A DNA stretch of 64,000 nt, taken from a virus (lineage: Duplodnaviria; Caudoviricetes). Location of the stretch: positions 1 to 64,000 of the IMG/VR virus record IMGVR_UViG_2654588115_000001; one strand, written 5' to 3'. The notes beneath the pieces were generated by a model. It did no database searches. It worked only from the letters and a program-made list of their open reading frames with translations, and was not told where the DNA came from. Position numbers and translations under genes: made by a program. Shown piece after piece: positions 3,130 to 57,628 of this stretch (positions are counted from its first letter, which is position 1; every line of letters begins with the position of its first letter).

Positions 3130-3402
3130 TGACTACCACGCTCCTATCCCAGCATAAAATTTATAAAAATTAATTTTTGGGGTTCTTTTTCCACATAAAT
3201 TTTTATTTTGTGGTATAATTACCGCCTTGTTTTTATGAAATAAGGCGAAACAATAGGTTTTCTTTGTTTATTTTGGTATTATTTGGCTTTATTGTTATTG
3301 ATTCAAAAAACGGCATGTTTTTCCAAAAAAATTTTTAACTTGTGCTACCATGAAATCATAGCAAGGCCGGCTTGCAGAAATAATTCATTGGAGGTCATAC
3401 CT

Positions 3403-3717
3403 ATGACAAACTTAAATTTACTCGACGAAATTATTAAAGACCTGGAATCCTGCAAGGATATGTTATCCAGATTGGGAGAATACAACGATTACATAACCGA
3501 TGCTACTCCATTCCTTATGTCCGAACCCTTGATGTATATAGCTGATGAATTGGACGAGGCCAATAATACCGAAACCGCTGCCTACACCATCAGAGGCGTT
3601 GCCGAGCATTTATCCCTTTATACCATTCCCAACTGTGACCGACTTCCCAAATCTGTTGCCAGATTCCTTTCCAAACGGCTCGAATCTGCCAGAAATGAAC
3701 TTATGAACGCCGCATAA
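3403..3717 (+). CDS. hypothetical moron protein, copy 1 (paralog of 4102..4413)
   Basis: GGAGG RBS before ATG 3403; own extended -10 (TGcTACCAT) and terminator hairpin; highly similar to copy 2. Confidence 0.8.
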   Translation: MTNLNLLDEIIKDLESCKDMLSRLGEYNDYITDATPFLMSEPLMYIADELDEANNTETAAYTIRGVAEHLSLYTIPNCDRLPKSVARFLSKRLESARNELMNAA

Positions 3718-4101: not shown

Positions 4102-4413
4102 ATGACAAACTATGATTTACAAATTGACCCCATCAAGGACCTGGAATCCTGCAAGGATATGCTATCCAGATTAAGCGAGTACAACGATTACATCACCAAT
4201 GCTACTCCGTTCCTCATGTCCGAACCCTTGATGAGTATAGCTGATGAACTTGACGAGGCGGATAACACCGAATACGCCGCCTTCACCATCAGAGGGGTTG
4301 CCGAACATCTGGCTCTATACACCTCTCCCAAAAGTGGCCGACTACCAAAATCCGTTGCCAGATTCCTTGCCAAGCGATTGGAATCCGCATTGGATGAACT
4401 TAACGCTGCCTAA
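4102..4413 (+). CDS. hypothetical moron protein, copy 2
   Basis: AGGAGG RBS; IKDLESCKDMLSRL.EYNDYIT.ATPFLMSEPLM shared with copy 1; terminator hairpin GCATGG...CCATGC-TTTTT. Confidence 0.8.
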   Translation: MTNYDLQIDPIKDLESCKDMLSRLSEYNDYITNATPFLMSEPLMSIADELDEADNTEYAAFTIRGVAEHLALYTSPKSGRLPKSVARFLAKRLESALDELNAA

Positions 4414-7179: not shown

Positions 7180-7757
7180 CAGTGGCCACCTCGCTTTACT
7201 TCTTTATCTATCATTTTGCCCAATGCAAAAAATATTTCATCTTCCATCGCTTTCATCCGCGCCGAAGTTCCCTCCTTGGGAGCCACATTGTCACGGACTA
7301 CATGATGCCCCTTCCTTGGCGTAACCTTGCCCCACGTCTTACCCTTCCCTGCGGTTTCCCACTCCAGGTTCAAGCCATGGGGCATGGCCATCGAAGAACC
7401 TGCATGGTAGTTACCGTCAAGGTCATAATAGGGACCACGGCTGCGGATTTCGTTACCGCTGGGGTCGTTGCCAGGTGGTTTGCCTCGTTCTGGGTTCCAT
7501 AGTCCACTCCGTTTATAATCCGAAAGCCCCGGATTTTCTGTTTCATCATCCATTTTTGAACCAGACCCATGTTCGACAATCCACATTTTCTGCCCCTTCG
7601 CCGTATAAGTGCCTATGACCTCATCCGGCTCGTCCTTGGTAATCTCGAAGGAAATCTCCGCATTGCCAGAGTCCATCGTGAACTTGCCCCAATCACTGCG
7701 AACATCCGCCATAACACCACTGGCAGTGCGCTTTAATATCTCGGCAATCTCACTCAC
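7179..7757 (-). CDS. neck / tail completion protein (HK97 gp10-like position)
   Basis: Synteny; IVEHGSG resembles the VEYGTG motif. Confidence 0.55.
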   Translation of the reverse strand: MSEIAEILKRTASGVMADVRSDWGKFTMDSGNAEISFEITKDEPDEVIGTYTAKGQKMWIVEHGSGSKMDDETENPGLSDYKRSGLWNPERGKPPGNDPSGNEIRSRGPYYDLDGNYHAGSSMAMPHGLNLEWETAGKGKTWGKVTPRKGHHVVRDNVAPKEGTSARMKAMEDEIFFALGKMIDKEVKRGGH

Positions 7758-8311
7758 CGATTATCCTCCGCTACCTGCACCTCCAGCAGATTCACATACT
7801 TTGCCGTATCGACATTGACCACCTCATAGTTACGCCCATTGAGGCGAATACGGTACAGAAGGTCAATCTCCACATCCGGCCGCATGATAATCTTCTTGAC
7901 GGTTTTCTGCAAGATACCGGCATCATACTGTTTCATCGAAGCCGATATATCCGAGAAGTTCACAGGCACTGCCTCGGCTACGCTTACCGCTTTCTGCTCA
8001 ATCAGTTCATAGTCCTCATAAACATCTTCAAAGCGGAAAACCTCGACATAGCCATTGATGCGCCGGCCCTGCATCTGCACCACATCCGCAGAACGCTGCC
8101 TAGCAATGATAAGAAATTTTTCTTTGCTCACCTCACGGGTAATCAGCTCCCCATCGGTGATTTCCGTAGACACATCCGCTACGATAACCTTGCCATCTGC
8201 AATGGTTTTCGGAGCCATCGACTTGCCACGCCGCAGAACCAGACATTTTTCTTCCTTATCCCGGAAGGTAATCGGCTCCATGCGGTCCGCGTAAAATTCC
8301 AAAACATTCAC
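7754..8311 (-). CDS. head closure protein
   Basis: Synteny; C-terminal RIRLNGRNYEVVNVD typical of gp16/FII-like proteins. Confidence 0.6.
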   Translation of the reverse strand: MNVLEFYADRMEPITFRDKEEKCLVLRRGKSMAPKTIADGKVIVADVSTEITDGELITREVSKEKFLIIARQRSADVVQMQGRRINGYVEVFRFEDVYEDYELIEQKAVSVAEAVPVNFSDISASMKQYDAGILQKTVKKIIMRPDVEIDLLYRIRLNGRNYEVVNVDTAKYVNLLEVQVAEDNR

Positions 8312-8874
8312 TGCACTCGCACCCCATCGAGAATACCCTTGATTTCCTCCGTCATAACCCCTTCATTGCCGAGAGTAACCTTGATGTCATAATCATCACG
8401 GGATTTCCACCGCAGGACACCGCCCATCTGCTTGATGTTACAGGCGAGAATCCCACAGGCTCTCTTGATTTCTTCGGGAACTTCCGCATAACCACTGGTG
8501 TACTTCACCGTAAGCGCCCTTGGCATTTCACGGAAAAGCGCCCATCTTGGCATGTAGAAGGAGAAATACGGCGATTCCTCGCTGTCAAACTCCAGACAAT
8601 CCGCCTCATAATTCGTAGTATCAACCCCGAAAGGAGTTCTGCTACGAGCCGTAATTTTCTCAATGGCAATCCGTGGGAAATGTTTCAGCCGGCCGCGGGT
8701 TTCCTCCGTGGTCCTGCGATAGGACAGGTCAACCCGTTCCTCATGCTCCGTGGGAGCAAAGGAGCAACCCTTGTAAGCATCAATCAAGGCACTTGCCGCC
8801 TCAATATGCTCCATGGTCACTCCCGTAACCAAACCACAGAACCGGGAGATTTCTTCCTCGGTCAGATAGGTCAT
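8308..8874 (-). CDS. head-tail adaptor (connector)
   Basis: YLTEEE...ASALIDAY...VKYTSGYAEVPEEIKRAC typical of gp6/gp15 adaptors. Confidence 0.75.
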   Translation of the reverse strand: MTYLTEEEISRFCGLVTGVTMEHIEAASALIDAYKGCSFAPTEHEERVDLSYRRTTEETRGRLKHFPRIAIEKITARSRTPFGVDTTNYEADCLEFDSEESPYFSFYMPRWALFREMPRALTVKYTSGYAEVPEEIKRACGILACNIKQMGGVLRWKSRDDYDIKVTLGNEGVMTEEIKGILDGVRVQ

Positions 8875-9047
8875 TTCACATATCCCTCCTCACGCAGGTA
8901 ATCTGCAAACTCCGCAGATACCACAACCTTGCCGTCCTTAATGGGAATTTCCATGTTTTTCGCCAAGAAGGATGCGCAATTTTTATAGCCGTCCGCCACT
9001 TCATATCCAGCAACCTCGACTTCATCCGTTTTCTTCTTTCCTGCCAT
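8871..9047 (-). CDS. small virion-associated hypothetical protein
   Basis: Between capsid and adaptor; GGGGGTGA RBS before MAGKKK. Confidence 0.6.
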   Translation of the reverse strand: MAGKKKTDEVEVAGYEVADGYKNCASFLAKNMEIPIKDGKVVVSAEFADYLREEGYVK

Positions 9048-9145
9048 GCTCTCACCCCCTATGCTCACGACCTAATTAAGCCCTTCAAGGGAAGGAATAT
9101 CAGTGGTCAGGGATTACCCCTGCCCCTTCCCTTGAAAGGCATGGA

Positions 9146-10213
9146 TTAGGCCGTGGGCTTTACGGTCTTGGTGAGGATGAAGTGTGCGCCGGTCTGCGTT
9201 CCGTGAACGATATAGTTCGCAAAATCCAGCACAAACTTATCCGTCAGCAAGCGGTCATTGGCCAGCGGCGTTTCCGGATTGGCAATCTCATACACCTGCG
9301 GACCATCATTGAACAGCCAAATGCGGTCAATCATAGAGGTATTGAGGGCAACAATCTTATGCGTTACGGCACCAGTCTTTTCATCGACTTCCGGCTTGAT
9401 GAACGGAGTCAGCACAATCGGCAGGACACCGGTCGGCGTGAAGAACCCCGTCACCTTCTGGCCCGGAAGAATATCCGTCTGGATTTCACGATGGTAAATC
9501 TGACGAGCCTGTTCCTCCTTGACCAGTACATCGTAGGTGGCCGGATTCATAGCGATTACGTCCGGCATACCCTTGTAATCAAGACGAGCCATCATATTGG
9601 CAATCTTGGTATTGAGGGCATCGGAAATCGTGGTCTTATCCGCAATCGGGGACACATCGGTAATCTGGGACAGAACACCGCAATACTCGAAAGAGTCCGT
9701 TGCATCCAAAGCAGTCTTGCCGTTCCAAAAGTCGTTGCAGGTCTTACGGGTGAAATCTACAAACATATCGTTGTAGTCCTTCGTGGTCAGGTCCTCGAAA
9801 GTACCATAATTCTTCTCCATGTTGCGCGTGAAGAAGTCATAACGAATACCGGTGGCATAGGCACGCGCAAAAGCCTGTTTCCAGTTGTCACGGTTGTAAT
9901 CGTTATTGAGCGTCTTGGGGCGATAGGAGGGGTTCTCCTTCGTACCGAAACCTGCACGGGGGTCAATGGCTACCGTGTTCTCGGGGATAGCCAGCTGTTC
10001 ATTCCATACATGGGGATAGCCTTTGGCGCGAACAGAGTTCACCTTGAAACCGATGGCAAAATCGCGTTTCAGATAATCATGGAGGACAGAATCATAATCC
10101 CCCACAACGAGCATATGGTCTTCGTTGTAGACAGTCACCGGATTTCCGGCAGACTTAATCAGCGTACCATCCATGCCAGTGGCCATAGCGGCAGCAAATT
10201 TTTCTCTAGCCAT
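9146..10213 (-). CDS. major capsid protein
   Basis: 355 aa after protease; FWNG...EYCGVLSQI HK97-fold-like motif; strong codon bias; hairpin downstream. Confidence 0.85.
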   Translation of the reverse strand: MAREKFAAAMATGMDGTLIKSAGNPVTVYNEDHMLVVGDYDSVLHDYLKRDFAIGFKVNSVRAKGYPHVWNEQLAIPENTVAIDPRAGFGTKENPSYRPKTLNNDYNRDNWKQAFARAYATGIRYDFFTRNMEKNYGTFEDLTTKDYNDMFVDFTRKTCNDFWNGKTALDATDSFEYCGVLSQITDVSPIADKTTISDALNTKIANMMARLDYKGMPDVIAMNPATYDVLVKEEQARQIYHREIQTDILPGQKVTGFFTPTGVLPIVLTPFIKPEVDEKTGAVTHKIVALNTSMIDRIWLFNDGPQVYEIANPETPLANDRLLTDKFVLDFANYIVHGTQTGAHFILTKTVKPTA

Positions 10214-10259
10214 GTTTCACATCATCCTTTCCACTAAAAAAGAGCCAATCGCTAAGCGA

Positions 10260-11279
10260 TTAGCCCTGCATACGCAGCTTGGTAATTTCCTTGATTTTTT
10301 CCATGGGGTTCATGGCAGAAGCCTTGATTTCCGCTAGTTTTTCCTCGCGCTCATTGCCATTGTCCAGATTCGGATTCGGCACCGCACTCTGCGCAGCCTT
10401 TGGAGCCGGAGGTACTTCCTCGGCTGCCTTCACAGGTTCTGCCGGTTCATTGGCTTCATTTTCCTTTGCCTCTGCTGCGGCCTTGATTTCATCTACTTCG
10501 CCCTGCGCCTTTTCTGCGGCTGCTTTAATTTCGGCAATGGAATCCTTGATTTCCTTAAATGCCTCGTCAGCGCCCTTTTCCGCAGCAGATTTCAGTTCTG
10601 CCTGTGTTTCCTCGATTTTCTTCAAGCGTTCCTCCATAGATTCAACCACGCCGGCCGCAATCTCTTTTACGAGGGTTTCTTTTTCCTCTTTGGTCATTTC
10701 CACATCACACTCTCTTTCTTTCGCTTTCGCAGCTGCCAGCTTCTCGATGAACGTATCCGAGAAAGCAGCGCAGTTCTGCCACAGGATTGCACAACCGCAA
10801 CCCTCGAACTCATCCATGAACACCACTTTATCTTCCTCATGGGTAGCCTTTGCATACCACTCCAAAGAAAATCCCAGTGCACTCATGCCGTTGATAATCA
10901 TATAGGACTCATCCGGGAACTTGTCTTTCCACACCACGATTTCAGCCATGAGGTTATCCCCCTGCGCATAGCATTTACGGATATAACCGATGTTGGTCGA
11001 ACCATGATTGGTAAAGAGCTCTGTTCCATCCGCAAACCATCCATCCGGATAAGTACAGTTAAGAGGCATCCCCTCAAAGGATTTTGCGCAAGCCACAATG
11101 GAATCCTGGGTAAAAGCCACCCTCTTGCCATCAGCTCCGCAGGGGGAACCGGTGGATGCCTTACCAATGGTAGCCACACAGCCCACGATAATCATTTTAT
11201 TGGGTTCTGCCGACAAGGTAATTTCCGACAAGGACGCATTGATTTTACTCTTTTCCACCATTATCACCTCCCTCTTCAC
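10260..11279 (-). CDS. prohead protease / scaffold fusion
   Basis: N-terminal protease-like domain (H...IG.I, LGFSLE), C-terminal Ala/Glu/Lys-rich coiled scaffold. Confidence 0.75.
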   Translation of the reverse strand: MKREVIMVEKSKINASLSEITLSAEPNKMIIVGCVATIGKASTGSPCGADGKRVAFTQDSIVACAKSFEGMPLNCTYPDGWFADGTELFTNHGSTNIGYIRKCYAQGDNLMAEIVVWKDKFPDESYMIINGMSALGFSLEWYAKATHEEDKVVFMDEFEGCGCAILWQNCAAFSDTFIEKLAAAKAKERECDVEMTKEEKETLVKEIAAGVVESMEERLKKIEETQAELKSAAEKGADEAFKEIKDSIAEIKAAAEKAQGEVDEIKAAAEAKENEANEPAEPVKAAEEVPPAPKAAQSAVPNPNLDNGNEREEKLAEIKASAMNPMEKIKEITKLRMQG

Positions 11280-12549
11280 TGGTGTCTTTTATGTTTCCTA
11301 CGCCATTAAATCCACCAGACACGCCGTAGTCTACATTGATTTTTGTGGTCTTTTCGGGATAGGTCATATCAGCGTATACAGAAGTGCTTTCCTCATACCC
11401 CATCAACCTGCGGACTTCGTTCTCTGTCAGCACTCCCTTGTAATATTCGTCCACCACACGCTTGGATTTTACGGATTTCTGATTCTCCGAATCCTCGAAG
11501 ATAAAGCGGAATTTCAGCACACCGCCCAGTCCCATACCGGCAATCACATAGTTGTTGTACAAATCCTCCAACATTGCCGCATAGGGCTTAACCAGCTCCT
11601 GTATCATAGAGCTCTCCTGGTCCTCCCCGGTATTTCTGTCGTTGGCAATAACTAGCCCCAACTTTTCTGGAGGAATCCCGAAAGCCACTCCCACAATCTG
11701 GGTCAGCTTTTCCAGCCATTGCAGATACAGGCCGTCACTGTTGATTGCCTTAATCTGTTTGGTTTCCACAGACTTGGCACCGGCCACCACAGGGATGCGT
11801 CCTGTGCCCTCAATGGAATTTGCCATATACTCGATGAATTCCTCACGCTGGGCAGCCGTAACCCCTTCGCCAAGGGAGATAAGAAACTCTGCCGTAGCAT
11901 TGGTGGCTTTCTCATTGGCCTGTTCTATGGCATCCAAATAGAATTTCACATAGTTATAGGCCATCATCACTGGCGATAAACCATAAGGCTGATAAGTGAA
12001 ATATGCTCGCTGCAGATAAGCAATATCCTGCGCCGTAAAATATTTCATGCCATCGGCCTGTTGCTGCATATACCGTGCAGCCTTATCATCCGTATAATCA
12101 TACGGCACAACCATCTGAATGGTACTACCATCTACCGGATAGAGATACACAGGATGGCTGGGATTACTTGCCTTTGCTACCTCTGCACACATAGCATCCA
12201 GAACCATCGCATCGTCAAGGACACGCTTGGTAAAGGAGGCGCGGCTATCCACGAGATTCGGATGCTCAATACAGTTCTGCACCGCCGCAATCTCGCGTAT
12301 ATGCTTGCCCCTGCCGCCGATAACATCAATGGTGTACGGCTGACGGGACAAAGCATCCTGCACAATGGTTATCGCCTTGCGCACAATGGGGTCACGGCTG
12401 AAATTCCGCAGCTGCCGTATGGTGGGATTTTTCGGCAGAACCTGTTTCTTCTTTTTGCCATGCGGAATCCAGCTCATATATGTTTGGTTTGGCAGGAGCC
12501 TTGCCAAAGGGCCTTTGCTTGCCAAATATTTTTTCATATGGTCGAACAA
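11245..12549 (-). CDS. portal protein
   Basis: LYPVDGSTI, YGLSPV, AFGIPPEKLG motifs of HK97-type portals; follows terL. Confidence 0.9.
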   Translation of the reverse strand: MFDHMKKYLASKGPLARLLPNQTYMSWIPHGKKKKQVLPKNPTIRQLRNFSRDPIVRKAITIVQDALSRQPYTIDVIGGRGKHIREIAAVQNCIEHPNLVDSRASFTKRVLDDAMVLDAMCAEVAKASNPSHPVYLYPVDGSTIQMVVPYDYTDDKAARYMQQQADGMKYFTAQDIAYLQRAYFTYQPYGLSPVMMAYNYVKFYLDAIEQANEKATNATAEFLISLGEGVTAAQREEFIEYMANSIEGTGRIPVVAGAKSVETKQIKAINSDGLYLQWLEKLTQIVGVAFGIPPEKLGLVIANDRNTGEDQESSMIQELVKPYAAMLEDLYNNYVIAGMGLGGVLKFRFIFEDSENQKSVKSKRVVDEYYKGVLTENEVRRLMGYEESTSVYADMTYPEKTTKINVDYGVSGGFNGVGNIKDTSEEGGDNGGKE

Positions 12550-12555
12550 ACTTTC

Positions 12556-14184
12556 TCACCTCCCACCAAAGAAACTAAAGGGATTCGCAAATCGCAGCTT
12601 ACGCCCCCGTTCATCAATTTTATCCGTAGAAATACCGCCAAAGGAGAAATTGGCCACCGCGGACTCCATCATGGGCTTCAATGCCATTTCCAGACAGTCC
12701 GGACCATCATCATGCCCCTTGGGGTAATTCCGTAACTGACTGAGTAATATCCGTTGCCCCTGCCGGAACTTGATGTGTCCCTGCCGCACATGGGGTACAA
12801 GGCTTTCAATGCGAATGGCCTTGCTATCTCCCCCTGCATGGTAAACATCCAGCCAGTCCAGGTAAATCCCTGCCTGTATCAGCTCACGTTGCAGGGTGGA
12901 GGAGAAGAATAACTGCATCTGATTGGTTTCACAGACAATCTTCGGATTGTAGGTATAATACTGGGCGATAATCCGCTTGGCATCCTCGATAATCTGCTCC
13001 GGCCGGCGTTTTTGCAGGTCAGCCTCCAATACATAGAAATAATTATCTACGCACCGCGCCACCGCAACGATAGCCGAGAAGTCATTCGTGCGCTTGCCGC
13101 CGATAGCAGGGTCAATCGCAATGCAGACCTCTTTGATTTCCGGCAGGTCGATGTAATAGTTATTTTCCAGCCACTCCGTTTTGAATGTACGGGTATTCTC
13201 CGTTTGTGGGTCATTCTGGAACTCGGATGCAAACCCTTCTTCCGATGCCAGACGCCGTTCCATCAGATGCTCGTACATATCCGGCCGTTGATTCTCCCAA
13301 AGCACTTCCGTACCTTCCAGCATTTCTTCCTTGTGCTCGCGATAGAACTTCATGGCATCCGCATAGGCATTATCCCCACGGCTCAAATCCGTCATTATGG
13401 TTTCCCACTCGTGCCAGAGAGGAGAATCCGAAAATTTAATCACCGCCTGGAAAGTCTTGCGCACCCACGATGAATACTCTCCGTCATTCAGCATATGATA
13501 GAGCAGGGCATCATAACTAAGCACCGTGCCGATGTAGAAAAAAGAACAGGTTACAGACCCCATCGGCATCACATCAGAGTTAAACCACTGCTTTAGCGAT
13601 GCGTTCTGCGAAGGACTGGCTACCTGTTCTGCCGTTTCCAAATCGTCCAATATGACCAAATCCGGGCGCGTGGAATTAAACTTCATTCCGCGCATCTGAG
13701 CGCCTGCGCCCTTTGAGGTAAGGAACGTCTTAGTTCTCGTATAGATTTCGTTGGAGTTCCACATATCATCATTCTTCATTTCCCCGAAATCAGCCTTGAT
13801 TTTCTCGTTGAACTCCAGCTCATTGCGAATATCAATGATAAACTGTTTGGCCACCGGCCCCGTTGCCGAGATAATGACGATGAAGTGCTTATAGGAATAG
13901 CAAATGCACCATATCACAAATGCAAAACTGATTAGGGTACTTTTGGCGTGGCCTCTTGGAGCCGCCACCACATTGCGCGTTTCCTCGTCATTGTGATGGA
14001 AGATGATGTCCTCCACCTTCTTGATTAGCCAGAGGTGAAAAGGGCTCCATGAGGACTTGAAGGAATCCGCCAGGTAATACTCACAGAACTTCTTGAAATC
14101 CCGCGCACACACATCCTTCATACTTCGGCTATTGCCCTCTCTCCGCAGAGAACCGCCAAAGATTTCCTTCATCGCATTTGCCAC
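12556..14184 (-). CDS. terL: terminase large subunit
   Basis: Walker A APRGHAKST, Walker B LVILDDLE, nuclease IDPA...HDDGPD. Confidence 0.95.
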   Translation of the reverse strand: MANAMKEIFGGSLRREGNSRSMKDVCARDFKKFCEYYLADSFKSSWSPFHLWLIKKVEDIIFHHNDEETRNVVAAPRGHAKSTLISFAFVIWCICYSYKHFIVIISATGPVAKQFIIDIRNELEFNEKIKADFGEMKNDDMWNSNEIYTRTKTFLTSKGAGAQMRGMKFNSTRPDLVILDDLETAEQVASPSQNASLKQWFNSDVMPMGSVTCSFFYIGTVLSYDALLYHMLNDGEYSSWVRKTFQAVIKFSDSPLWHEWETIMTDLSRGDNAYADAMKFYREHKEEMLEGTEVLWENQRPDMYEHLMERRLASEEGFASEFQNDPQTENTRTFKTEWLENNYYIDLPEIKEVCIAIDPAIGGKRTNDFSAIVAVARCVDNYFYVLEADLQKRRPEQIIEDAKRIIAQYYTYNPKIVCETNQMQLFFSSTLQRELIQAGIYLDWLDVYHAGGDSKAIRIESLVPHVRQGHIKFRQGQRILLSQLRNYPKGHDDGPDCLEMALKPMMESAVANFSFGGISTDKIDERGRKLRFANPFSFFGGR

Positions 14185-44435: not shown

Positions 44436-46430
44436 TTACATTCCTTCCGTAACTTTTTCGCTTAACCGTGAAGTTGCCGGATTATAGACCAGGGTAAATA
44501 ACTCGTCCTCACTGCGCCGCTCTCTGGCCTTTACCAACTTAATCATTGAGTCGTACTTATACTTTTCCTTGTCGAGGGGCGAAAGAGTAGAATCCAAAGC
44601 CCTGCGCCACAGCAGGAACACATAGTCACCAGAGTCACCAATGGCACCGGAACCACGCAAATCCTTCTGCTCTGGCTCATGCCATTTACCGCCCTGCTCC
44701 TTGCCCTGACCTGCCTTGGATAACTGCGACAGAACCACGAACAGAACATTGAGCTTCTTGGCAAAGTCCTTGGTCCGCTCTGCCATCAATTCTTCGGCAG
44801 CAATGGTATCACGCCCACGCATCTTTTGGAAATAATCTACCGCCACAATATCAACGCCCTGCACACGGGTATTCATCAGATTGACATATTCCTCCATGCC
44901 ATCCAATGTCAGACCAGGCTTATCTACAATATACAGGCACTGCTCCAGCTTATCCTTGATAAGCCCATAGGTGTCCGGATGCTGCCGAATATACTCCGGC
45001 ACTTCATACCGTCGCGTCTGCACAATTTTCGCCACAAGGATTTTCATTATATCCTCCTTCGGCATTTCCAACGAGAAGAACAGAACCGTTTTTCGTAGCT
45101 TCACCGTCCAATACAGAATCCACTCCAGAAGATTTTCCGTCTTACCAGAGTTGGATGCAGCACCGAGGATAACCACATTCTTGCGCTTGAATTTTGCCGC
45201 CTTGTCGATATTCGGAAAGCCCACGCCGAAATATTCTTCGTCGCGCAATGACTCCAACGCCCGGAATGAATCCGTAGCACTGGCAATATCTTTCAGCTTT
45301 TCTTCCGTGGTATCATCTTTAAGATTCAGCAGGGCCTTGACCACATCAATTCCCTTCCCCCAGGTCCTCGCCAAAAGCTCAGCTATATCCTGCAATACCA
45401 CTGGATTCCCCACTGTTCTCACATAGTCCAGAATGTTCCGCTCCTGCACCTCCCTGTCCTCTTCCTCGGCTATCATTTCCATAACCACATAGAGGTCTAT
45501 CGGCAGATAAATACAATCCGCAGCAATATCTTTCCCACCAATAAGCATATCATTAAAGTCTTTGTACCCATCCGGGATTACTGCCACTTTAACCACGGTT
45601 TTCGGCGCATGGTTTTTGAACAAATCCCTTGCCCGGCGCACGAACTTCGATGCCTTGCCATCATTATCCGGGCAGAGCACCACCTTGCTGTTCTCCACCG
45701 TTTTCAACATCCCCTTGATGCGTTCCACATGGCTTTTGGTTATGCTGATGCCACAGTAAGCCACGCAGCAATTCCCCTGCTGCACCGCAGACATACAATC
45801 AAAAGCTCCTTCGGCAAGCATAAGTGTCCGCGTTTCCTTCAAATTCTTTTGCGCCTGGGGCAAACCAAAGAGAAATTCTCCCTTGGTAAACAGCCCTTTC
45901 ACGTTCTTACTATTTTTGTACTTCGGCTTTCCCTCAAAGAATCGATACAGAAACGCCACCGGTCGATGCCATTCATCAAACATAGGGATTGTCAGTGCCT
46001 TTAACTTATCGGAATACCCCAGCTGATAGGCTTCGATGGTTTCATCAGTAAGCCCACGCTTATGCAGATAATCCACCACAGTCGGCAATTCTTTACGCAT
46101 CCGTCCAATCCACTCGTCATTTCGTTGGACAATCGAGCTGTGCTCCCGGTACTCGTCCGTATCGCTGATGGTCAGGCCAAAATCATCACACAGGGTATGA
46201 ATGGCGGTTTCAAAACTGCAACCGTCACGCCCCATAACATAGCGGATTATATCGCCACTGCTATGGCAGCCAAAGCAATAATACCGATTATCCGGGTAAA
46301 CCACGAAAGCCGTATCATTATGCCCACCGTGGATTGGGCAGGCGCAGCGATAAGTTCCGTCGCTCTGCAATTTCAGTTCGGGGATATACTCTACCAGTGA
46401 TTTCCCCCGGATAACATCCACAATATTCAA
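44436..46430 (-). CDS. DNA primase-helicase (CHC2 zinc finger + TOPRIM + DnaB-like helicase)
   Basis: CPIH...CFGC, KYKNS, EGAFD, DND..G, KDFND; GAASNSGKT, FSLEM, VDYFQ, LSQL, DLRGSG. Confidence 0.92.
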   Translation of the reverse strand: MNIVDVIRGKSLVEYIPELKLQSDGTYRCACPIHGGHNDTAFVVYPDNRYYCFGCHSSGDIIRYVMGRDGCSFETAIHTLCDDFGLTISDTDEYREHSSIVQRNDEWIGRMRKELPTVVDYLHKRGLTDETIEAYQLGYSDKLKALTIPMFDEWHRPVAFLYRFFEGKPKYKNSKNVKGLFTKGEFLFGLPQAQKNLKETRTLMLAEGAFDCMSAVQQGNCCVAYCGISITKSHVERIKGMLKTVENSKVVLCPDNDGKASKFVRRARDLFKNHAPKTVVKVAVIPDGYKDFNDMLIGGKDIAADCIYLPIDLYVVMEMIAEEEDREVQERNILDYVRTVGNPVVLQDIAELLARTWGKGIDVVKALLNLKDDTTEEKLKDIASATDSFRALESLRDEEYFGVGFPNIDKAAKFKRKNVVILGAASNSGKTENLLEWILYWTVKLRKTVLFFSLEMPKEDIMKILVAKIVQTRRYEVPEYIRQHPDTYGLIKDKLEQCLYIVDKPGLTLDGMEEYVNLMNTRVQGVDIVAVDYFQKMRGRDTIAAEELMAERTKDFAKKLNVLFVVLSQLSKAGQGKEQGGKWHEPEQKDLRGSGAIGDSGDYVFLLWRRALDSTLSPLDKEKYKYDSMIKLVKARERRSEDELFTLVYNPATSRLSEKVTEGM

Positions 46431-47496: not shown

Positions 47497-48099
47497 TTAA
47501 ATAGGAACCTCCTCATCAGCAATACCGAAATCATCTGCCGGTTTATTCTCAGCCAGTTCAATACCGAACTCCGAGAAATCAGCGGCTCCACCCCGGTACT
47601 CAATCAACTTATCCACCGCCAGCTTTACGATATACAGATTGATACCGTTAGCACGGGCAGAAGCGTAGTAAGCACTGGGCTGGTAAAGCACACGCACCAT
47701 CGAGCCATCACCAATGGCAACATCTTTGTCGAGCTGGATGCGGCGCACCGTGTCAACTACAGGAACGAACCGTTGTTTTTCCTCACCGGTCTGCTTATCG
47801 CGATAGAAAGCACCAGTCTGGAAGAAGAAGTACAGCTCTCCGTTCTCCTGCTCTTTGTAACCGCAGGTAGCATCGGCAGACCATTTTTTCCCCTGGAACT
47901 TCTCGTTTTCCTTCGCAGCCGCAAGATAATCGTCACAGATTTTCTTCATCTTGGTTTCGGTTTCCTTATCAAAGGAAAGAGCCAGCTTGTACTTGCGTTT
48001 ACCCTCAAACTCGTCAAACCGGGTATTCACCTTTACCCAGTGGGCCTTGCCGGAGAAGGAAACAACGGGTTTCTCTGTTAAGTTGACATTAAGATTCAT
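47497..48099 (-). CDS. ssb: single-stranded DNA-binding protein (T7 gp2.5-like)
   Basis: OB-like G.A.W.KV, IGDGS.VRV, acidic tail DDFGIADEEVPI; AGGAG RBS; upstream of primase-helicase. Confidence 0.75.
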   Translation of the reverse strand: MNLNVNLTEKPVVSFSGKAHWVKVNTRFDEFEGKRKYKLALSFDKETETKMKKICDDYLAAAKENEKFQGKKWSADATCGYKEQENGELYFFFQTGAFYRDKQTGEEKQRFVPVVDTVRRIQLDKDVAIGDGSMVRVLYQPSAYYASARANGINLYIVKLAVDKLIEYRGGAADFSEFGIELAENKPADDFGIADEEVPI

Positions 48100-48794: not shown

Positions 48795-48918
48795 TTTTTT
48801 ACATCATAAAACCCGAAGGAAGACACACCGTATTCCTTCGGGTATTTTTTCGCTTATTTCTATATTGGTATAATTTCGTTATTATTGGCTTTATGTCAGT
48901 GTTTCTTAGAAACACCAA

Positions 48919-49086
48919 TCACACATCTTTGTGTTCCGTAATCATGCACACGCAAGCTGAAACCTTGTTCGCAATCACCCTAATTCCAGGGTGGACTGCC
49001 ATCAAATCTTCATCCTTGCAAAACGACCGTAGCAAATCTTCAACTTCGTAAAGTTCATCCAATAAGGCATGATTATTATCGTCCAT
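48919..49086 (-). CDS. 55-aa acidic protein
   Basis: AAGGAGG RBS and TTGACA promoter upstream; MDDNNHALLDELYEVEDLLRSFCKDED... Confidence 0.6.
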   Translation of the reverse strand: MDDNNHALLDELYEVEDLLRSFCKDEDLMAVHPGIRVIANKVSACVCMITEHKDV

Positions 49087-49429
49087 ATGTACCTCCTTAT
49101 GGTAGAGAAAAAATTCGGCGTTGGCATTTATCCGGATTCAACCAACCCGTCAAAGGACAATGTCTTTAACGTGAGTACTATAATAAGCCAAAACACGATA
49201 ATTGTCAACCGCAAAATTTGTAAATGTCAAAAAATCAATCAAAAATTAGCAGCCATCCGTATTGTGAAATTGGCAGAAGAATATAACCTCAATTTTTATC
49301 CGCGAAAAGCAAACTCTTAACAGGCTCATCTACTATAAAATCATTCATAAAAATATAAGTTTAAGAACTAAATAGGATGCAATCAAAATTCCCTTAACCC
49401 CTGTTTTTACTATGAAGATTGAAACCAGT

Positions 49430-49700
49430 CAAGGGAATTTAATTAAATGTAAAAGAAAATTTTCCATACGACATATTTCCGAAAAATCCTGCCTTAAAAA
49501 TCCAAAAAAAACAAGAAGTAATATTCCGACAAAACGTGAAACATGTGAAACAAAAACATAGCGAAAGAAGCAAGTAAACCAAGAAAAATCACAATAAAAA
49601 ACAATAGATAAGTCGCGACAAATTTGCGATAAAACCGATAATCTGAAACATATGTACACATACAATATACTAAGTAATGAAAATGAAAATGCCCCTTGGA
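49430..49700. other. A-rich strand-biased tract with repeated CGAHA words (putative unwinding/priming zone)
   Basis: acgaca, ccgaaa, ccgaca, gcgaaa, gcgaca, gcgata, ccgata embedded in A-tracts. Confidence 0.45.
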
Positions 49701-49939
49701 ACACACTAGCATCCCAAGAGGCGTTCTTACTCATAAAATTAAAAGTCAAAAAGAAATTCTATACACCAGGCAATACCTTCAAAAACACTACTTACTACGC
49801 CCAATACTTCCCCGTCCCTTGCAAACATCCTTAACTCATCAAGTGAAGAATGTTCTAACCAACTAAGAAGAAATTTAATTTTTATCTAGTAGAGATATAA
49901 ATATCTTGAAAAATTCTTATTGACTTGTAGGTGTTTTTA

Positions 49940-50783
49940 TGATGGAGACCACAGGAAACGGAGGAGCGGAACAGAGTGCAACCTTAGTTTCTGCAAATAC
50001 AGTATACTACTGTCGCACCATGTCGAAAATTGATGGATTCCACGAGGTATCCGGTATCGCTTTTCACAGTTCAATTAGTCACCGTCGCTACAACGATGCA
50101 GAGTTTTAATAGTGGTCTTATACCCCACACTACCACGCCCCTCGGCGCGTTCCTCTGGCTCGGCATATTTCATCCGTATACATGACAGGGCAGGTATCGC
50201 GCTCTCACGCGAATTTAGGGAACCTGGCACCTGTGATTAAGCCCCCGCAGGCTTCTTAACGCTCCGCAGACAACAAAAAAAGACGCATACTTGCGCCTTA
50301 CCCTTTGTATATATACCGGTATCTTAGCCTTCCACGGCCCCAGCATACCGTCTGCCTACGCTTATTATGGGAGTTAGCCTGTTCTTCACCCACTTAGGTC
50401 ACAGAAGGACATTGAACAAATTCCTTCTGACCCCGCCGATATTCTGTGCATCCGCTGGCGAAACGGTGGTCTCTCTACGAGTAGCCAGGATTATACTGCT
50501 TGCGTGCAGTGACATAGTAACCTTACCTACATTTTCCCGCAATAAGGACACGGGCAACCTACGGCAGCTTCTTCCTGCCGTTGAGGAACGCAGAAACACC
50601 GCGAAAACACTTGACAAAAACCCAGTAAATCCTTATACTAGGCTTATAACTTGAACTCAATGTTGTGTGTTTACGCAACTCGGGACTTGGATGTTGGCGC
50701 ATTCAAGTCCTTTTTTCTTATGTTCATTTTCGATTGTCTTACCTATCTATCGGCTATCCCCAGTCCACTGTGGATAACTCATG
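49940..50783 (-). ncRNA. long structured non-coding transcript, putative replication pre-primer/control RNA
   Basis: TTGACT-17-TATTAT promoter (50817-50789); long-range pairs 50583-91/50147-55, 50590-97/49987-94, 50466-73/49945-52, 50350-55/50266-71; no credible ORF. Confidence 0.55.
50646..50716 (+). ncRNA. ~70-nt antisense (counter-transcribed) RNA
   Basis: TTGACA-17-TATACT (50611-50639) and terminator GGACTTGGATG/CATTCAAGTCC-T6. Confidence 0.7.
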
Positions 50784-50809
50784 CTCAAATAATATCATAC
50801 TTATCCACA
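50769..50809. promoter_or_regulatory. two perfect DnaA boxes, inverted
   Basis: TGTGGATAA 50769-50777 and TTATCCACA 50801-50809. Confidence 0.8.
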
Positions 50810-50889
50810 GAAGTCAACATGATTTATTTCTTTATATATATACCACCCTCTTGAAATCCGCATAAACTGGTGCTATAATCTAATCAAAC

Positions 50890-50988
50890 ACCATTACACC
50901 ATTACGCCATTATACTGGTGTTACAGCATTATAACGCTGTAATGTCATAATGGTATACCGTTATAATGGTGTAACGCTATAACGTTAT
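50890..50988. repeat. octamer array 9 (12 units) in parA leader; putative parS/operator
   Basis: Largest array, between TTGAAA-17-TATAAT (50851-50879) and the parA RBS. Confidence 0.88.
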
Positions 50989-51007
50989 TCAAAAGGGAGG
51001 AACACCT

Positions 51008-51769
51008 ATGATTACAGTGGTTATCAGCAACAAGAAAGGCGGCGTAGGCAAAACTACTACGGCTTATAATTTGGCAGCAGGACTTCGGAAGCGCGGTAAA
51101 TCAGTTCTGGCCATCGACCTTGACCCGCAATGTTCCCTTACGAAATTCTGCGGCGTAAATAAGAACGGTCCAACCTCCTTCGGTGTAATCACCAAGGAAG
51201 TCAACATCAACTCCGCTATTCTGAAACTGGAGTTCTTCGACCTCATTCCTGGCAGCGCATCACTGGCCACTGCTGACCAGACCCTGCCCGAATCTGTAAA
51301 CCGCCTTATGCGCATCCGTGAAGCCCTCTCCGAGCTGAAAACGGATTATGACTACTGCATCATGGATAATGCTCCGGCTATCGGCGTAGTTACCGTTAAT
51401 GCCTACATGGCCACCGACTATGTAATCATCCCCGCCGAAGCCAACGAACTCTCCACGGATGGCATCGCTAATGTTTATGAATCCATCCTCGATGTGAAGA
51501 AGTACGTGAACCCCCATATCCAAATCGCCGGTATTCTGCTGACTCGCTACAAGCCCAACACAGTTCTCAACCGCGAATACAGCGATATATTCAACGAACT
51601 GGCCAAGGGTATGGGTACTAAGGTTTTCAAAACGCCAATCCGTGAGAACGTCAACCTCTCCGAATTGCCGTCCATCCATGTTCCCATCTTCGATTACAAA
51701 CCCGGCTCCACTGGTGCCGAAGACTACAATGCCTTTATTGATGAATTTATTAAGGGAGTTGAAAAATAA
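51008..51769 (+). CDS. parA: ParA/Soj partition ATPase (type Ib, no N-terminal HTH)
   Basis: KGGVGKTT, IDLDPQ, DYCIMDNAP, IRENV. Confidence 0.95.
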   Translation: MITVVISNKKGGVGKTTTAYNLAAGLRKRGKSVLAIDLDPQCSLTKFCGVNKNGPTSFGVITKEVNINSAILKLEFFDLIPGSASLATADQTLPESVNRLMRIREALSELKTDYDYCIMDNAPAIGVVTVNAYMATDYVIIPAEANELSTDGIANVYESILDVKKYVNPHIQIAGILLTRYKPNTVLNREYSDIFNELAKGMGTKVFKTPIRENVNLSELPSIHVPIFDYKPGSTGAEDYNAFIDEFIKGVEK

Positions 51770-52173
51770 TGGCAATCAAAAGAAGCGAAATGTTCCATAA
51801 GCGCAAATCCGATGTGCTCATGCAGATAAAAGGTGCTACCGAAAAATTTGAGGAGGCCCCCGAACCGGAACTCGTAGAGGCCTTCAAAGAAGCTGCTGAA
51901 AACAAAGAAGAAACAGAAACCGCTGCAGCACCTATCGTAAAAGCCCCTCCTGCCAAACCAAAGGCAAAAAAGGCTCAGCCCAAGGAAGAAGAAAAGGAAC
52001 GCCGCGACAAACGCGTGACTCTTTATCTTACCCAGGAAGAATACGATATGTTCCGTGAACAGGCTTACCGCCGTCACAAAAAACTCAATGAAGTTATCGT
52101 AAGCGCAGCCAAGAAAAACATTGGCAGACCGCCTGCGCCCCCAAAAGAATATCGCGAAGAAAACGACGATTAA
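51769..52173 (+). CDS. centromere-binding partner with C-terminal ribbon-helix-helix (ParG/omega-like)
   Basis: Coupled to parA; flexible N-terminus then KRVTLYLTQEEYDMFREQAY...LNEVI. Confidence 0.75.
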   Translation: MAIKRSEMFHKRKSDVLMQIKGATEKFEEAPEPELVEAFKEAAENKEETETAAAPIVKAPPAKPKAKKAQPKEEEKERRDKRVTLYLTQEEYDMFREQAYRRHKKLNEVIVSAAKKNIGRPPAPPKEYREENDD

Positions 52174-52822: not shown

Positions 52823-53422
52823 TTAGCCGGCCATTATTCGCCCCAACCGCCGGAAGAACATCCGGATTTTTTTCGTATCTTTCTTGCCGTTAGTTTCTAG
52901 CCCCTCTGACACTTCCACAGCATACGGAAGGGTGCTCTTATTTACTTCCTTCACATTTTCTCGGCGTATATTCGCAGCCAAAATCACAGATTTATGTGTA
53001 TCGGTTATCTCCAGTGCTATTTCTTTCCTGGTATAATCCTGCTCACCAAGGTCTAGTAGAATCATTTCTGCCACAGTCCTTCTGGCCTTTTCCACCGAGA
53101 AACCTTCATCATACCGATACCGTTTTATCACCGGGCAAGCGACCTGCCAGATATACTCCTCGTCCTCATGTCCATTCAGTTGCACATAATCCAGTCCTAC
53201 CTTGCTTACCACATCATTAACCGTGTCCAAATCTTCGTCCTTGAACACACCTACCAGACGTGAGCCAGGCACCTGCTGCGCAATAACAGCGGCTCTATCC
53301 GGCGATACATAATCCTTGTTTTCTCTGTCGAATACAAAAGCGATAAAGTCAGCCCCACATTCTTCTGCCGTCTTAGCCGTAAACATATCCGTAATTCCCG
53401 AAACCATAGCTCTTATGTACAT
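52823..53422 (-). CDS. TrpF (phosphoribosylanthranilate isomerase)-like TIM barrel, catalytically degenerate
   Basis: GAD.I.FVF, VGVF.DE, LDYVQL.G.E, LLD, V..G.ETNGKKD..KI..F match TrpF; catalytic Cys replaced by Ser. Confidence 0.85.
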   Translation of the reverse strand: MYIRAMVSGITDMFTAKTAEECGADFIAFVFDRENKDYVSPDRAAVIAQQVPGSRLVGVFKDEDLDTVNDVVSKVGLDYVQLNGHEDEEYIWQVACPVIKRYRYDEGFSVEKARRTVAEMILLDLGEQDYTRKEIALEITDTHKSVILAANIRRENVKEVNKSTLPYAVEVSEGLETNGKKDTKKIRMFFRRLGRIMAG

Positions 53423-54496: not shown

Positions 54497-57400
54497 TTAT
54501 GCCGTCACCTGTCGCGCATCCACGATAATCCCCTTGGGGCTCCGGATGAACTCATAGCTCAGCCCCTGTATTACATTGATGCCCTTCTGCCAGCCACGGT
54601 ATCTATCATAGTATTTGGCCTTCTTCCACGCCGATGCGAACACTATGCCGTCAAAATCACCGTAAGCCGTGCGGAACACCAACTTGGCCATGGTATTGCC
54701 CTTCTTATCGTTGAACTCATACACCGACTTGGCAACGCCTGTCAGCACCTTCGGTAGTGAAGTAAAGGAGAAAGACAGCACCGAGATTTCCCCTGCAATT
54801 CTGTCGTATTTCTCTGCAGCAGATTCCTTGAACGTTACATCAGCCAGCTTGGCCTTCCACTGCTCCACCATACGATTGGCCTTATTCCGCTCCTTATCCG
54901 TTTCTGCAGCAAGGCATTTCGCCGCGTAGAATTCCATGCGTTCCTCACAATGCGCCTTACGGTCCGCAGCCTCCTTGGCCGAAACCAGGTTAGCCAACAT
55001 CCACCCACGGTCTTTGCCAAGGTAATCCAGTGCTCCTGCCTTAATCAGCCCCTCGTTAATCAGCTTGTTATTGGCAGCGAATACCTCCTGCCAATCCGAG
55101 GAACGAACCAGGTTCAAGTTTGTTCCCACACCTTTGATATAACAGAGCCCCACACGGATAGCATCGCCCTCCACGGTAAACTTTCGATTACCCTTGGACA
55201 AATCTGGTGGCAACAGTTCAATCCACATCCGCTTACATTCCTCGATATACGGCAGAATCTTCTTCTGGTCGCTACGAGAGTTAAGTAACGCACACATATA
55301 CTGCGCCGGATAATGAGCTTTGAGAAACGCCGTCTTATAGGAGAGCTTGGCGTAGGACACCGCATGGCTTTTATTGAACACATACCGGCCGGCCGCCTCA
55401 ATCTGCCCTGCTACTTCCTCGGCCACCTCACGGCTATACCCATTTTTCATGCAGCACTCCACAAAATCAGCTACCGCAGCCTTAATCTTCGGCAGTTCCT
55501 TTCGACCAATAACCTTGCGGAGCCCATCGGCTTGTCCCAAGTCATACCCTGCCATCTTCATGGAGATAAGCATAATCTGCTCCTGGAACACTAGCACCCC
55601 ATAGGTACTGCCAGCGATTTCCTCCATGGCCTCACAGGGATATTCCACGGTAATCTTGCCGTTCTTGGCATCCACATACTGTTGGAGCATACCAGAGTCA
55701 ATCGGACCCGGACGGTACAATGCCACAAGCACCGCCAAATCATCGAATCGGTTCGGATGCAGTTCCCTTGCCACCTTCTGCATACCAGGGCTTTCCATCT
55801 GGAATACCCCTGTAGTGTGTCCACCTGCATACAGTTCAAAGGTTTTCTGGTCATTCATCGGAATATCTTCCAGAGAAAGTTCCTGCGGTATACCGGCCAG
55901 ACATTCTGCGATAATATCCAACGTGCGCAAGCCCAGAATGTCCAGTTTCAAGAGACCCATATCTTCCAACGTGTGGTACTCAAAGGCAGCCACACGCACA
56001 TACTCACGCTTGCCAGTGGATGTGTCCGTAGATGTGCAGCCCTCGACCGGACAATATTTCTCCACCGCATCCGGAGTAACGAGGATTGCCGAGGCATGAA
56101 CCCCCATTTTATCAATGCGGCCGGCAAAATGTTGGGAAACATCCAGCAACCGTTCCCGTTCTTCCGCGGAGAAATCACTATTTACCGTAAGAATTTCATC
56201 CATAGAGTCCGTAAGTTCCTTTGTCACCGTCAGGACCCGCTCCCTGGTCCAGCGCATCCCTGTGTCCTGCTTATTTTTCTTCCGCAGGTCAATATCTGTC
56301 CTCTGTTCATCGGTCAGTCCCAGATATTCTTCTTTTTCCAACGCTTGCTGCGCACGGAGTACCGCTTGTTTCCCGACATCTGGCTTGTCCGGATTCTTGG
56401 TGTAACCATAGGTGGTGACTTTATAGACCGTACCGTAATGCTCCCGGATATAGTCGATGATGCGCCCACGGTTATCCGTAGACACATCCGTATCAATATC
56501 CGCCGGTGACTGTCTATATGGATTACAGAAGCGGAAGAACGCTGTATCATAGGCGATGCTATCAACCTTATGGAATCCCATCAAATACCCCACGAGGCAC
56601 CCTGCCGCCGAGCCACGGCCTTCCCCCACGGGGATATTGTTTTTTACGCACCAGTTGACCAAATCCCAGATAATCAGCAGGTAATTAAGGTAATTCGCCT
56701 TTTTGAGGTCACGCATTTCAGCCTCGAAGCGTTTCCCGTATTCCTTGTACTTGCCTCGTGGCACTTTGCTTCGCCAATTCTCACGGCAAATTTCCCGGAT
56801 TACTTCCTCTGGGTCACGGTCGGTATAGGTGGGATAGTGCATACCGCCAAACTCGATTTCCACATTGCACATATCGGCAATCTTCACCGTATTAGCAATG
56901 GCTTCTTCCTTCACATCATCGGGAATCCATGCTGTGGCTATGATTTCATCCTCGCTATGCAGATAGTTCTCGTTGTCATGGTAGCCATTGCCATGAATCT
57001 GCAACCACAAGTAATGATACGGTTCATCCTCGGCCTTTGCATAGTGCGCATCTGTAGTAACCACCAACGGCACATCGTATTTCCTCGCCAGGGAAATAAC
57101 CTTGTCATTGTATGCCCACTGCCGGTCAATGTTCAGTGGCTGAATTTCTGCGAAAAAACGTGCGCCGAAAATCTCCTTGAACCGCTGAAACCACTCCTCG
57201 CCATTATCTGTATTGACAATCGAGGCCATACATGCTGACAGGCAAATCAGCCCCTCTGCGTGGTTTCTAAGGTCATTCTCGTCAATTCTCGGCTTATAGA
57301 ACATATGGCTTTCGTTATAAGCAATGGAATCCAGCTCTTTGAGGTTACGGTAGCCGGTATCATTCATCGCCAGAAGAACCAAATGGTGCGTAAAGGCACG

Positions 57401-57628
57401 GTCACGGATGGTAACATCGGGGCAGAAGTAAAACTCGCAGCCGATAATCGGTTTGATTTCCTGCGCCTTGCATTCACGGTAAAATTCAACGATGCCACGC
57501 ATGGTTCCGTGGTCCGTAATGGCCACAGCAGACTGCCCCAGCTCCTTTACGCGGTTGACCATTTCCTTCGCCGTCTGGTAGCCGTCCAAAATTGAAAAAT
57601 CCGTATGATTATGAAGTGAAATATACAT
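54497..57628 (-). CDS. dnaE: DNA polymerase III alpha subunit (phage-encoded)
   Basis: PHP domain LHNHTDFSILDG, AITDHG; GRGSAAG, DIDTD, KLDILGL, FNKSHA. Confidence 0.96.
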   Translation of the reverse strand: MYISLHNHTDFSILDGYQTAKEMVNRVKELGQSAVAITDHGTMRGIVEFYRECKAQEIKPIIGCEFYFCPDVTIRDRAFTHHLVLLAMNDTGYRNLKELDSIAYNESHMFYKPRIDENDLRNHAEGLICLSACMASIVNTDNGEEWFQRFKEIFGARFFAEIQPLNIDRQWAYNDKVISLARKYDVPLVVTTDAHYAKAEDEPYHYLWLQIHGNGYHDNENYLHSEDEIIATAWIPDDVKEEAIANTVKIADMCNVEIEFGGMHYPTYTDRDPEEVIREICRENWRSKVPRGKYKEYGKRFEAEMRDLKKANYLNYLLIIWDLVNWCVKNNIPVGEGRGSAAGCLVGYLMGFHKVDSIAYDTAFFRFCNPYRQSPADIDTDVSTDNRGRIIDYIREHYGTVYKVTTYGYTKNPDKPDVGKQAVLRAQQALEKEEYLGLTDEQRTDIDLRKKNKQDTGMRWTRERVLTVTKELTDSMDEILTVNSDFSAEERERLLDVSQHFAGRIDKMGVHASAILVTPDAVEKYCPVEGCTSTDTSTGKREYVRVAAFEYHTLEDMGLLKLDILGLRTLDIIAECLAGIPQELSLEDIPMNDQKTFELYAGGHTTGVFQMESPGMQKVARELHPNRFDDLAVLVALYRPGPIDSGMLQQYVDAKNGKITVEYPCEAMEEIAGSTYGVLVFQEQIMLISMKMAGYDLGQADGLRKVIGRKELPKIKAAVADFVECCMKNGYSREVAEEVAGQIEAAGRYVFNKSHAVSYAKLSYKTAFLKAHYPAQYMCALLNSRSDQKKILPYIEECKRMWIELLPPDLSKGNRKFTVEGDAIRVGLCYIKGVGTNLNLVRSSDWQEVFAANNKLINEGLIKAGALDYLGKDRGWMLANLVSAKEAADRKAHCEERMEFYAAKCLAAETDKERNKANRMVEQWKAKLADVTFKESAAEKYDRIAGEISVLSFSFTSLPKVLTGVAKSVYEFNDKKGNTMAKLVFRTAYGDFDGIVFASAWKKAKYYDRYRGWQKGINVIQGLSYEFIRSPKGIIVDARQVTA

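Follow-up and report, generated by a model that had tools for sequence, protein, structure and literature searches.

Plasmids of the ColE1 type begin replication from RNA II, a primer against which the antisense RNA I is made. How class E theta replication starts without an initiator (Rep) protein or DNA polymerase I (Pol I) has been an open question since 1995, described as still little understood in 2021 (PMC8557374). The origin of plasmid pLS20, oripLS20, is presented there as a replication module of ~1.1 kb that has no typical replication gene, is sufficient for autonomous replication, holds a consensus DnaA box along with degenerate ones, and adjoins the alp7AR partition genes; its mechanism is given as unknown, and it is thought to be limited to Bacillus (PMC8557374). 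Minireplicons of pLS20 are reported to replicate in polA5 and recA4 strains (PMC4490491). Here we analyze the first 64 kb (hereafter the window) of the 80,267-bp IMG/VR virus record IMGVR_UViG_2654588115_000001, in which a gene-free stretch beside a partition locus appears to hold a module of similar layout (49.68-50.82 kb), i.e. a long minus-strand RNA (~28 helices), a promoter wrapped in DnaA boxes, and a convergent antisense RNA of ~72 nt. We hold with moderate confidence, by analogy, that this module is an RNA-based replicon that may maintain the plasmid state of a Selenomonas-type phage-plasmid without an initiator protein, with oripLS20 as its working type.

No credible open reading frame (ORF) is found in positions 49087-51007 of the window, between a 55-aa ORF ending at 49086 and parA, which starts at 51008. 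The longest frames in this gap, of 106 aa (49429-49749, minus strand) and 95 aa (50367-50654, plus strand), reach no Pfam family, the sole Pfam listing for the 95-aa frame being a sub-threshold match to Ribosomal_S15 at 13.9 bits against a cut-off of 31; the ORF-free stretch beside parA described in an initial annotation of this DNA is thereby borne out. The G+C content is 49-52% across 50000-50600, as against 29-36% to both sides. Homologues of the region were gathered by blastn, exact-word scans, and one metagenome scan, giving an alignment of 10 sequences: the window and nine homologues (pSRC3, one further viral contig, and seven metagenome contigs) with identities of 66-98%. Two of nine metagenome stretches (L127 and L131) were dropped as chance matches since nhmmer did not confirm them.

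The comparison of these sequences reveals a conserved block with a sharp start at 49915 and an end near 50605. The alignment folds better when read as the minus strand (-321 vs -259 kcal/mol for the plus strand), and the counts of G-U to A-C combinations are likewise skewed, at 260:25 on the minus strand versus 128:62 on the plus strand. RNAalifold places 155 pairs in 28 helices, with 97.8% of cells paired, and compensatory double changes are seen at 46 of the 155 pairs; column shuffles gave 23 +/- 2.7 (0/500 as high), and controls in which the partners were slid by 1-3 columns gave 6-10. The z-scores for folding of the single sequence are weak (-1.93 for the minus strand, -1.28 for the plus strand). 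The prediction that the gap beside the partition genes encodes a large structured RNA on the minus strand is thus strongly confirmed by covariation across homologues, which places a core of ~0.7 kb at 49915-50605.

The core is predicted to consist of two covarying domains on the minus strand, a 5' domain at 50300-50605 (columns ~150-467 of alignment A3) and a 3' domain at 49915-50271, separated by a hairpin with a U7 tract that resembles an intrinsic terminator (50272-50299, minus strand); the stem of this hairpin covaries (A3 helix 18) and is kept in 9 of 10 sequences, being deleted in pSRC3. Invariant runs of 20-46 nt occur within the core, and its 3'-terminal element (49920-49943) is strongly conserved. 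Read on the plus strand this element gives TTGAC-12-TATGAT, which we rejected as a promoter since a 12-nt spacer is too short for a standard one. Beyond the core lies a variable 3' extension (49682-49914, minus strand), which includes an GGGCGUAGUAG-type block common to 5 of 7 homologues and a second putative terminator of the long RNA at 49722-49691. The initial annotation had also proposed four long-range helices, one of which stands: 50350-55/50266-71 pairs in all 10 sequences, with a compensatory change in pSRC3. The helix 50583-91/50147-55 is contradicted, as covariation backs a local helix instead; 50590-97/49987-94 is fully paired in just two of nine sequences; and the pseudoknot 50466-73/49945-52 has 8/8 pairs in the window alone and 5-7 of 8 in the seven others with both arms complete. 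Contigs from two RNA-library runs fall on 50350-50661, and a 391-nt RNA-library contig of a relative extends through the equivalent of positions 50606-50782; these contigs indicate presence only and are no proof of transcription, and given that they cannot show absence, strand, ends, or level, the lack of any on 48800-50314 or 50719-51021 was not used as evidence.

The elements around the core, with promoters and terminators called by consensus and conservation, suggest how the long RNA may be expressed. Its putative promoter (50817-50789, minus strand) has a -35 element TTGACT (50817-50812), a 17-nt spacer that contains a DnaA box, and a -10 element TATTAT (50794-50789), which together match the consensus at 10 of 12 positions and come with a TG extension; by eye, the -35/-10 pair is at the same place in all nine homologues that hold this flank. 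Transcription would start near 50782. The DnaA-box cluster (50754-50809, assigned to no strand) comprises one perfect box inside the promoter spacer (50801-50809), a second, inverted, just past the -10 element (50769-50777), and a degenerate third box with two mismatches 7 bp further on (50754-50762). Neither the window nor the rest of the 80,267-bp genome has any perfect box besides these two, and the perfect boxes of pSRC3 (73 kb) are likewise found only at the homologous place; the inverted box is present in 9/9 homologue flanks and the other in 5/9.

Between the promoter and the core, the 5' leader of the long RNA (50606-50782, minus strand, an extent set by the position of the promoter) is poorly conserved; it holds a conserved block at 50720-50745 and the complement of a candidate small RNA of ~72 nt (50646-50718, plus strand). 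This small RNA would be convergent with the long RNA and lie wholly within its leader, and its putative promoter (50611-50639, plus strand; TTGACA-17-TATACT, 11/12) keeps both hexamers, with a variable spacer, in all nine sequences that cover it. The predicted fold has a single-stranded 5' end, a first stem-loop, and a terminator hairpin (50682-50711) with a U-tail. A two-hairpin fold of 71-75 nt occurs in the 6 of 10 sequences where the promoter pattern matched, with the sequence drifting and the fold kept, which is the pattern of plasmid incompatibility determinants. A minus-strand promoter overlapping that of the small RNA (TTGAGT-17-TATAAG, 50660-50632) was dropped, since by eye it is not conserved. 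The minus-strand promoter, the DnaA boxes, and the antisense RNA had all been called in the initial annotation, and the signals for each are present.

Among named relatives, the closest to the window is the plasmid pSRC3 of Selenomonas ruminantium TAM6421, which is complete, circular, and 73 kb long and was the sole match when plasmids were searched by blastn with the window region; since tail, portal, and terminase genes are found together with parA on pSRC3, we take it to be a phage-plasmid. The counterpart of the present module falls at ~72.0-73.3 kb of pSRC3. In the window, the partition module (50851-52173, plus strand) consists of a promoter (50851-50879), centromere-like repeats (parS, 50880-50990), parA (51008-51769), and a gene for a 134-aa partner (51769-52173), and the starts of parS and parA are ~60-190 bp from the long-RNA promoter. 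The association is retained among the homologues, with parA or its start adjoining the RNA unit in 8/9 flanks. In two of the metagenome contigs (L129 and L124) the flank carries a differently repeated centromere and a gene for a 269-aa ParA-like protein, for which a Walker A motif was recognized by eye in L129.

There is no recognizable initiator gene on the element. None is named by the Prokaryotic Genome Annotation Pipeline (PGAP) among the 94 features of the complete pSRC3, and profile searches of three complete genomes gave 0/3 for Rep3_N, 0/3 for DnaB_2, and 0/3 for RepA_N, but the control for the last of these was silent; Phage_rep_O gave 1/3, a sub-threshold generic winged-helix protein. 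The search for a rep gene elsewhere in the genome, which the initial annotation had suggested as a check, found none within this scope. Its term 'Rep-less' can be kept with a qualifier, namely that the element has replisome genes of its own, encoding a primase-helicase (44436-46430), a T7-type SSB (47497-48099), and a DnaE-type polymerase (54497-57628), all three of which are carried in the three complete genomes.

For comparison with the experimentally defined system, we analyzed seven plasmids, i.e. pLS20 (NC_015148, L140 in our set) and six members of its family. All have the elements of the present module in mirror-image order: par, outward promoter, convergent small unit, structured core, and terminator, with the pLS20 promoter beside the centromere, near L140 2835-2865, facing away from alp7A as judged by eye. 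The convergent small unit of L140 has a minus-strand promoter at 3138-3110 and a terminator at 3068-3039, which would yield an RNA of ~70 nt. The core of oripLS20 is ~610 nt (L140 3157-3768, equal to NC_015148 64956-65567; 550-700 nt across the comparison) and has 167 predicted pairs, 27 of them compensatory, as against 11.4 +/- 2.2 in shuffles (0/500) and 4-7 in slid controls; its G-U:A-C counts are 120:4 on the strand leading away from par versus 46:21 on the other. A search of Rfam over the pLS20 region returned nothing. By these measures, the outward strand of the oripLS20 core, which points away from alp7A, has the behavior of a large structured RNA. Its DnaA box (columns 226-240 of alignment A7, L140 ~3361-3372) is part of a short hairpin, and only 1 of the 7 plasmids has it in perfect form; the others keep the stem and change the letters of the box.

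We read the unit in the window as a replicon because it is always directly beside a partition locus, also in L129 and L124, and because three complete genomes yielded no initiator gene. The earlier proposal of an RNA replicon that maintains the element as a plasmid is in part supported, as to the structured RNA, the antisense RNA, and the DnaA boxes beside parS-parAB, and not supported as to the ColE1 mechanism that came with it. In the scheme we infer, which takes in the start and end points of transcription, every replication step, and the control of copy number, host DnaA would bind at the promoter and so put synthesis of the long RNA, or the loading of helicase, under the timing of the host cell cycle. 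In place of a Rep protein, the folded RNA would act at or close to the gene that encodes it, either to open the origin or to recruit the replisome. By pairing with the leader, the antisense RNA would cap the amount of productive RNA and so set copy number and incompatibility, and elongation or lytic replication would fall to the primase-helicase, SSB, and DnaE of the phage.

Several observations weigh against this replicon interpretation. Having its own primase-helicase, SSB, and DnaE, the element could initiate elsewhere by other means; the cumulative GC skew of G000 and of pSRC3 is monotonic, with no origin signal; and the invariant runs in the core, together with a terminator at either end, would suit a discrete RNA that acts in trans as well. 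An unrecognized initiator is possible because ~60% of pSRC3 genes are annotated as hypothetical. The analogy with oripLS20 is one of architecture and design only, because homology is not detectable: a covariance model of 178 positions (R1) found nothing in pLS20, and nhmmer comparison of the present module with oripLS20 gave reciprocal E values of 0.046-0.84 in the small-RNA unit only, which may reflect promoter and terminator consensus. The RNA is moreover rare, with 1 of 262 Selenomonadaceae species genomes (that of the pSRC3 host) carrying it, and three loci with relatives of the ParA (L007-L009, 56-72% identity) show no detectable homologue of the RNA, the corresponding slot being occupied by an ORF-poor block.

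The main rival interpretation is that the RNA is cargo, a stand-alone large noncoding RNA that acts in trans in the manner of ROOL or GOLLD and whose function, be it lysogeny control, anti-defence, or an RNA-only assembly, is unrelated to replication; the DnaA boxes would then merely regulate the promoter, and the antisense RNA merely tune the level of the transcript. We consider this possible rather than probable. The unit does look like a gene in its own right, since it has a promoter and terminators to itself, and it is richly folded, with invariant stretches of great length; ROOL and GOLLD are described as large, phage-associated RNAs of unknown function (PMC5737381; PMC12286853); and the element already encodes replisome proteins. 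A cargo RNA is harder to reconcile with the position of the unit, which is directly beside a partition locus even where the centromere repeats (and the par genes, as far as these were read) are different, and with the leader-antisense arrangement and DnaA-box cluster, both typical marks of a replicon. The searches found no Rep gene, the experimentally defined and Rep-less oripLS20 has the same layout, and the RNA matches neither ROOL nor GOLLD.

A ColE1-type (class B) origin, the mechanism put forward in the initial annotation, would make the long RNA a run-on primer: its hybrid with an A/T-skewed tract would persist, RNase H would cut it, and Pol I would extend it, with the antisense RNA acting like RNA I. 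The locus does have a long folded RNA, an antisense RNA against its 5' part (with convergent promoters and the 72-nt small RNA in the leader), and no Rep gene that we could find, and an RNase H1 gene is present on L129, a plasmid-like contig with the RNA. The A/T-rich, A-skewed tract is also there, at 49300-49900 (no strand; GC 0.29-0.36, AT skew up to +0.50); it lies outside the conserved module, however, and is absent from all six homologues with 860 bases of left flank, where other genes or bidirectional terminators come 20-300 nt after the RNA; the bidirectional terminator of L132 is immediately adjacent to the conserved end. The conserved terminators, one inside the RNA (50299-50280) and one after it (49722-49691), are unexpected for a primer that must run into its origin and therefore argue against one. 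Moreover, the 3' part of the RNA and any RNA copied from the tract are pyrimidine- and U-rich and should make poor hybrids, as U-rich RNA forms the weakest RNA-DNA hybrids; RNase H genes are found in 0/3 complete phage-plasmid genomes; Rfam gives no match to ColE1 RNA I or any other family; and pLS20, the closest analogue, replicates in a polA5 host. With no conservation of the tract and with intrinsic terminators beyond the RNA, we judge a ColE1-style run-on primer to be very unlikely. As a separate observation on L129, its RNase H1 gene (164-1096, minus strand) has an N-terminal hybrid-binding domain.

That the pairings act instead in single-stranded DNA, as hairpins extruded at an origin or in a displaced non-template strand with the same sequence as the RNA, was raised as a possibility for plasmid-associated motifs by Weinberg et al. 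(PMC5737381) and would give the same covariation, which cannot separate RNA from strand-specific single-stranded DNA, but it is most improbable here, since the 260:25 excess of G-U over A-C fits RNA better, given the general stability of wobble pairs, the element has a conserved promoter before it and terminators after it on that strand, and RNA-library contigs cover part of it (as presence only).

Returning to the replicon interpretation, a broader and more tentative view, which we rate as possible rather than probable, is that Rep-free class E replication is RNA-driven and arose, or diverged past the point of recognition, in at least two Bacillota lineages, the conjugative plasmids of Bacillus and the phage-plasmids and plasmids of rumen Selenomonas. 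In both, an ornately folded, antisense-checked RNA of 0.6-0.7 kb would then itself be the initiator together with host DnaA, a 'ribo-initiator' and not a mere primer: made from a promoter beside the partition site, it would act with DnaA in origin opening or in helicase loading.

Rfam 15 has no entry for the RNA family. No match at the gathering score was obtained over the 64-kb window or over five related loci; relaxing the limit to E values of 10 gave 16 matches, none of which came near the gathering score and the best of which (28.5 bits vs 84) was on the parS repeats, and the models searched, including ROOL, GOLLD, and ColE1 RNA I, gave no match to the RNA. The Rfam comparison suggested in the initial annotation thus returns no matching family, and its word 'undescribed' is apt for the RNA family and not for the replicon type, which has a known analogue in oripLS20 (class E theta). 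In the literature we found no paper describing this Selenomonas RNA or an RNA in oripLS20. Matches of 20-32 nt were obtained in nine other Selenomonadaceae genomes; the one inspected (L114) is coding-like, and all nine were treated as chance, as was a 16-mer match in L149. A phage collection searched by blastn gave no match to the RNA region, genome contigs scanned with an exact 20-mer gave 0 matches, and a ParA-based scan of genome contigs gave relatives of at most 44% identity. Searches with the R1 model of 18 other loci, and of L007-L009 with the filters disabled, turned up no relative. The ORF-poor block of L007-L009 is GC-richer, with a small-RNA-like unit and DnaA boxes, and the two alignable sequences among them, L008 and L009, differ between strands at -90.4 vs -80.1 kcal/mol and 20 vs 11 G-U combinations, a comparison of two sequences only. 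In L008 (~2640-2900) and L009 (~1690-1715), where ParA is 56% identical, clusters of DnaA boxes are located at the far end of the block, with one further box at the promoter end.

Other features of the neighborhood and of the related contigs may be noted in passing. The 55-aa ORF (48919-49086, minus strand), which lies between the repressor gene and the A/T tract, has a strong ribosome-binding site and matches no family; a near-consensus promoter at 49208-49180 belongs to it. Just past the par genes is a gene for a TrpF-like phosphoribosylanthranilate isomerase (PRAI; 52823-53422, minus strand), and elsewhere in the window two direct copies of 271 nt (3433-3703 and 4132-4402) are 82% alike and 699 bp apart. 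The L124 contig carries, along with the RNA unit, RloB/AAA_21 genes and a type I restriction-modification system (952-2747, 7576-14153); the part seen has no phage genes and resembles a plasmid laden with defence functions.

Few bacterial RNAs are this large and complex, and those found so far have each pointed to biochemistry out of the ordinary; this one sits in the replicon slot of a low-copy plasmid, with replicon-like regulation and no initiator gene in sight. That the pLS20 core and an unrelated rumen element appear to share a long covarying RNA and an antisense RNA would turn the open question of class E initiation into concrete experiments in two systems. If the replicon interpretation is correct, it would explain how one group of phage-plasmids persists in the plasmid state in an important rumen genus, and the module could provide a compact replicon for Selenomonas genetics.

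Among known RNAs of mobile elements, ARRPOF (from the Fusobacterium plasmid pKH9), GEBRO, and PAGEV are described as structured motifs in gene-free regions that can support plasmid replication without a rep gene (PMC5737381), as we propose for the present RNA. They average 223-349 nt, in contrast to the core of ~700 nt found here, to which no Rfam family rises above noise at E values up to 10. ROOL, GOLLD, and OLE are closer in scale, at over 500 nt, and are like the present RNA in their numerous helices and junctions, in being set in mobile elements, and in having a biochemistry that is unknown. Unlike these, the present RNA has no model match, is in fixed synteny with par and DnaA boxes, has a dedicated antisense RNA, and is not near tRNAs (there are 0 tRNA genes in the window). 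With ColE1 (RNA II/RNA I, class B theta) the module has in common the lack of Rep, a long folded RNA, and an antisense RNA against a 5' part that drifts in sequence; it differs in having no conserved hybrid-forming or origin tract downstream, in the terminators that would end the RNA, in the DnaA boxes at its promoter, in the lack of an Rfam match, and in that its nearest analogue is Pol I-independent.

That analogue, oripLS20, differs in host (Bacillus vs rumen Negativicutes), in carrier (a conjugative plasmid vs a phage-plasmid with replisome genes of its own), and in partition system (actin-like Alp7A vs ParA). The DnaA boxes of the present module flank the promoter, whereas the perfect box of pLS20 is inside a covarying hairpin, and the big terminator hairpin comes right after the antisense unit in pLS20, while the internal terminator of the present RNA is ~330 nt further on; replication from oripLS20 has been shown by experiment, and the present module is known from sequence alone. 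There is no detectable homology of sequence or structure between the two. What they share is the design. Like the ~1.1-kb oripLS20 module (PMC8557374), the locus in the window has a module of about 1 kb in an ORF-free stretch of 1.9 kb with no recognized replication gene, DnaA boxes within the module (two perfect and one degenerate), and a partition operon directly adjacent, and both systems appear to follow a single plan in which par is succeeded by an outward promoter, a leader overlapped by a convergent RNA with a predicted length of ~70 nt, a covarying core, and a terminator.

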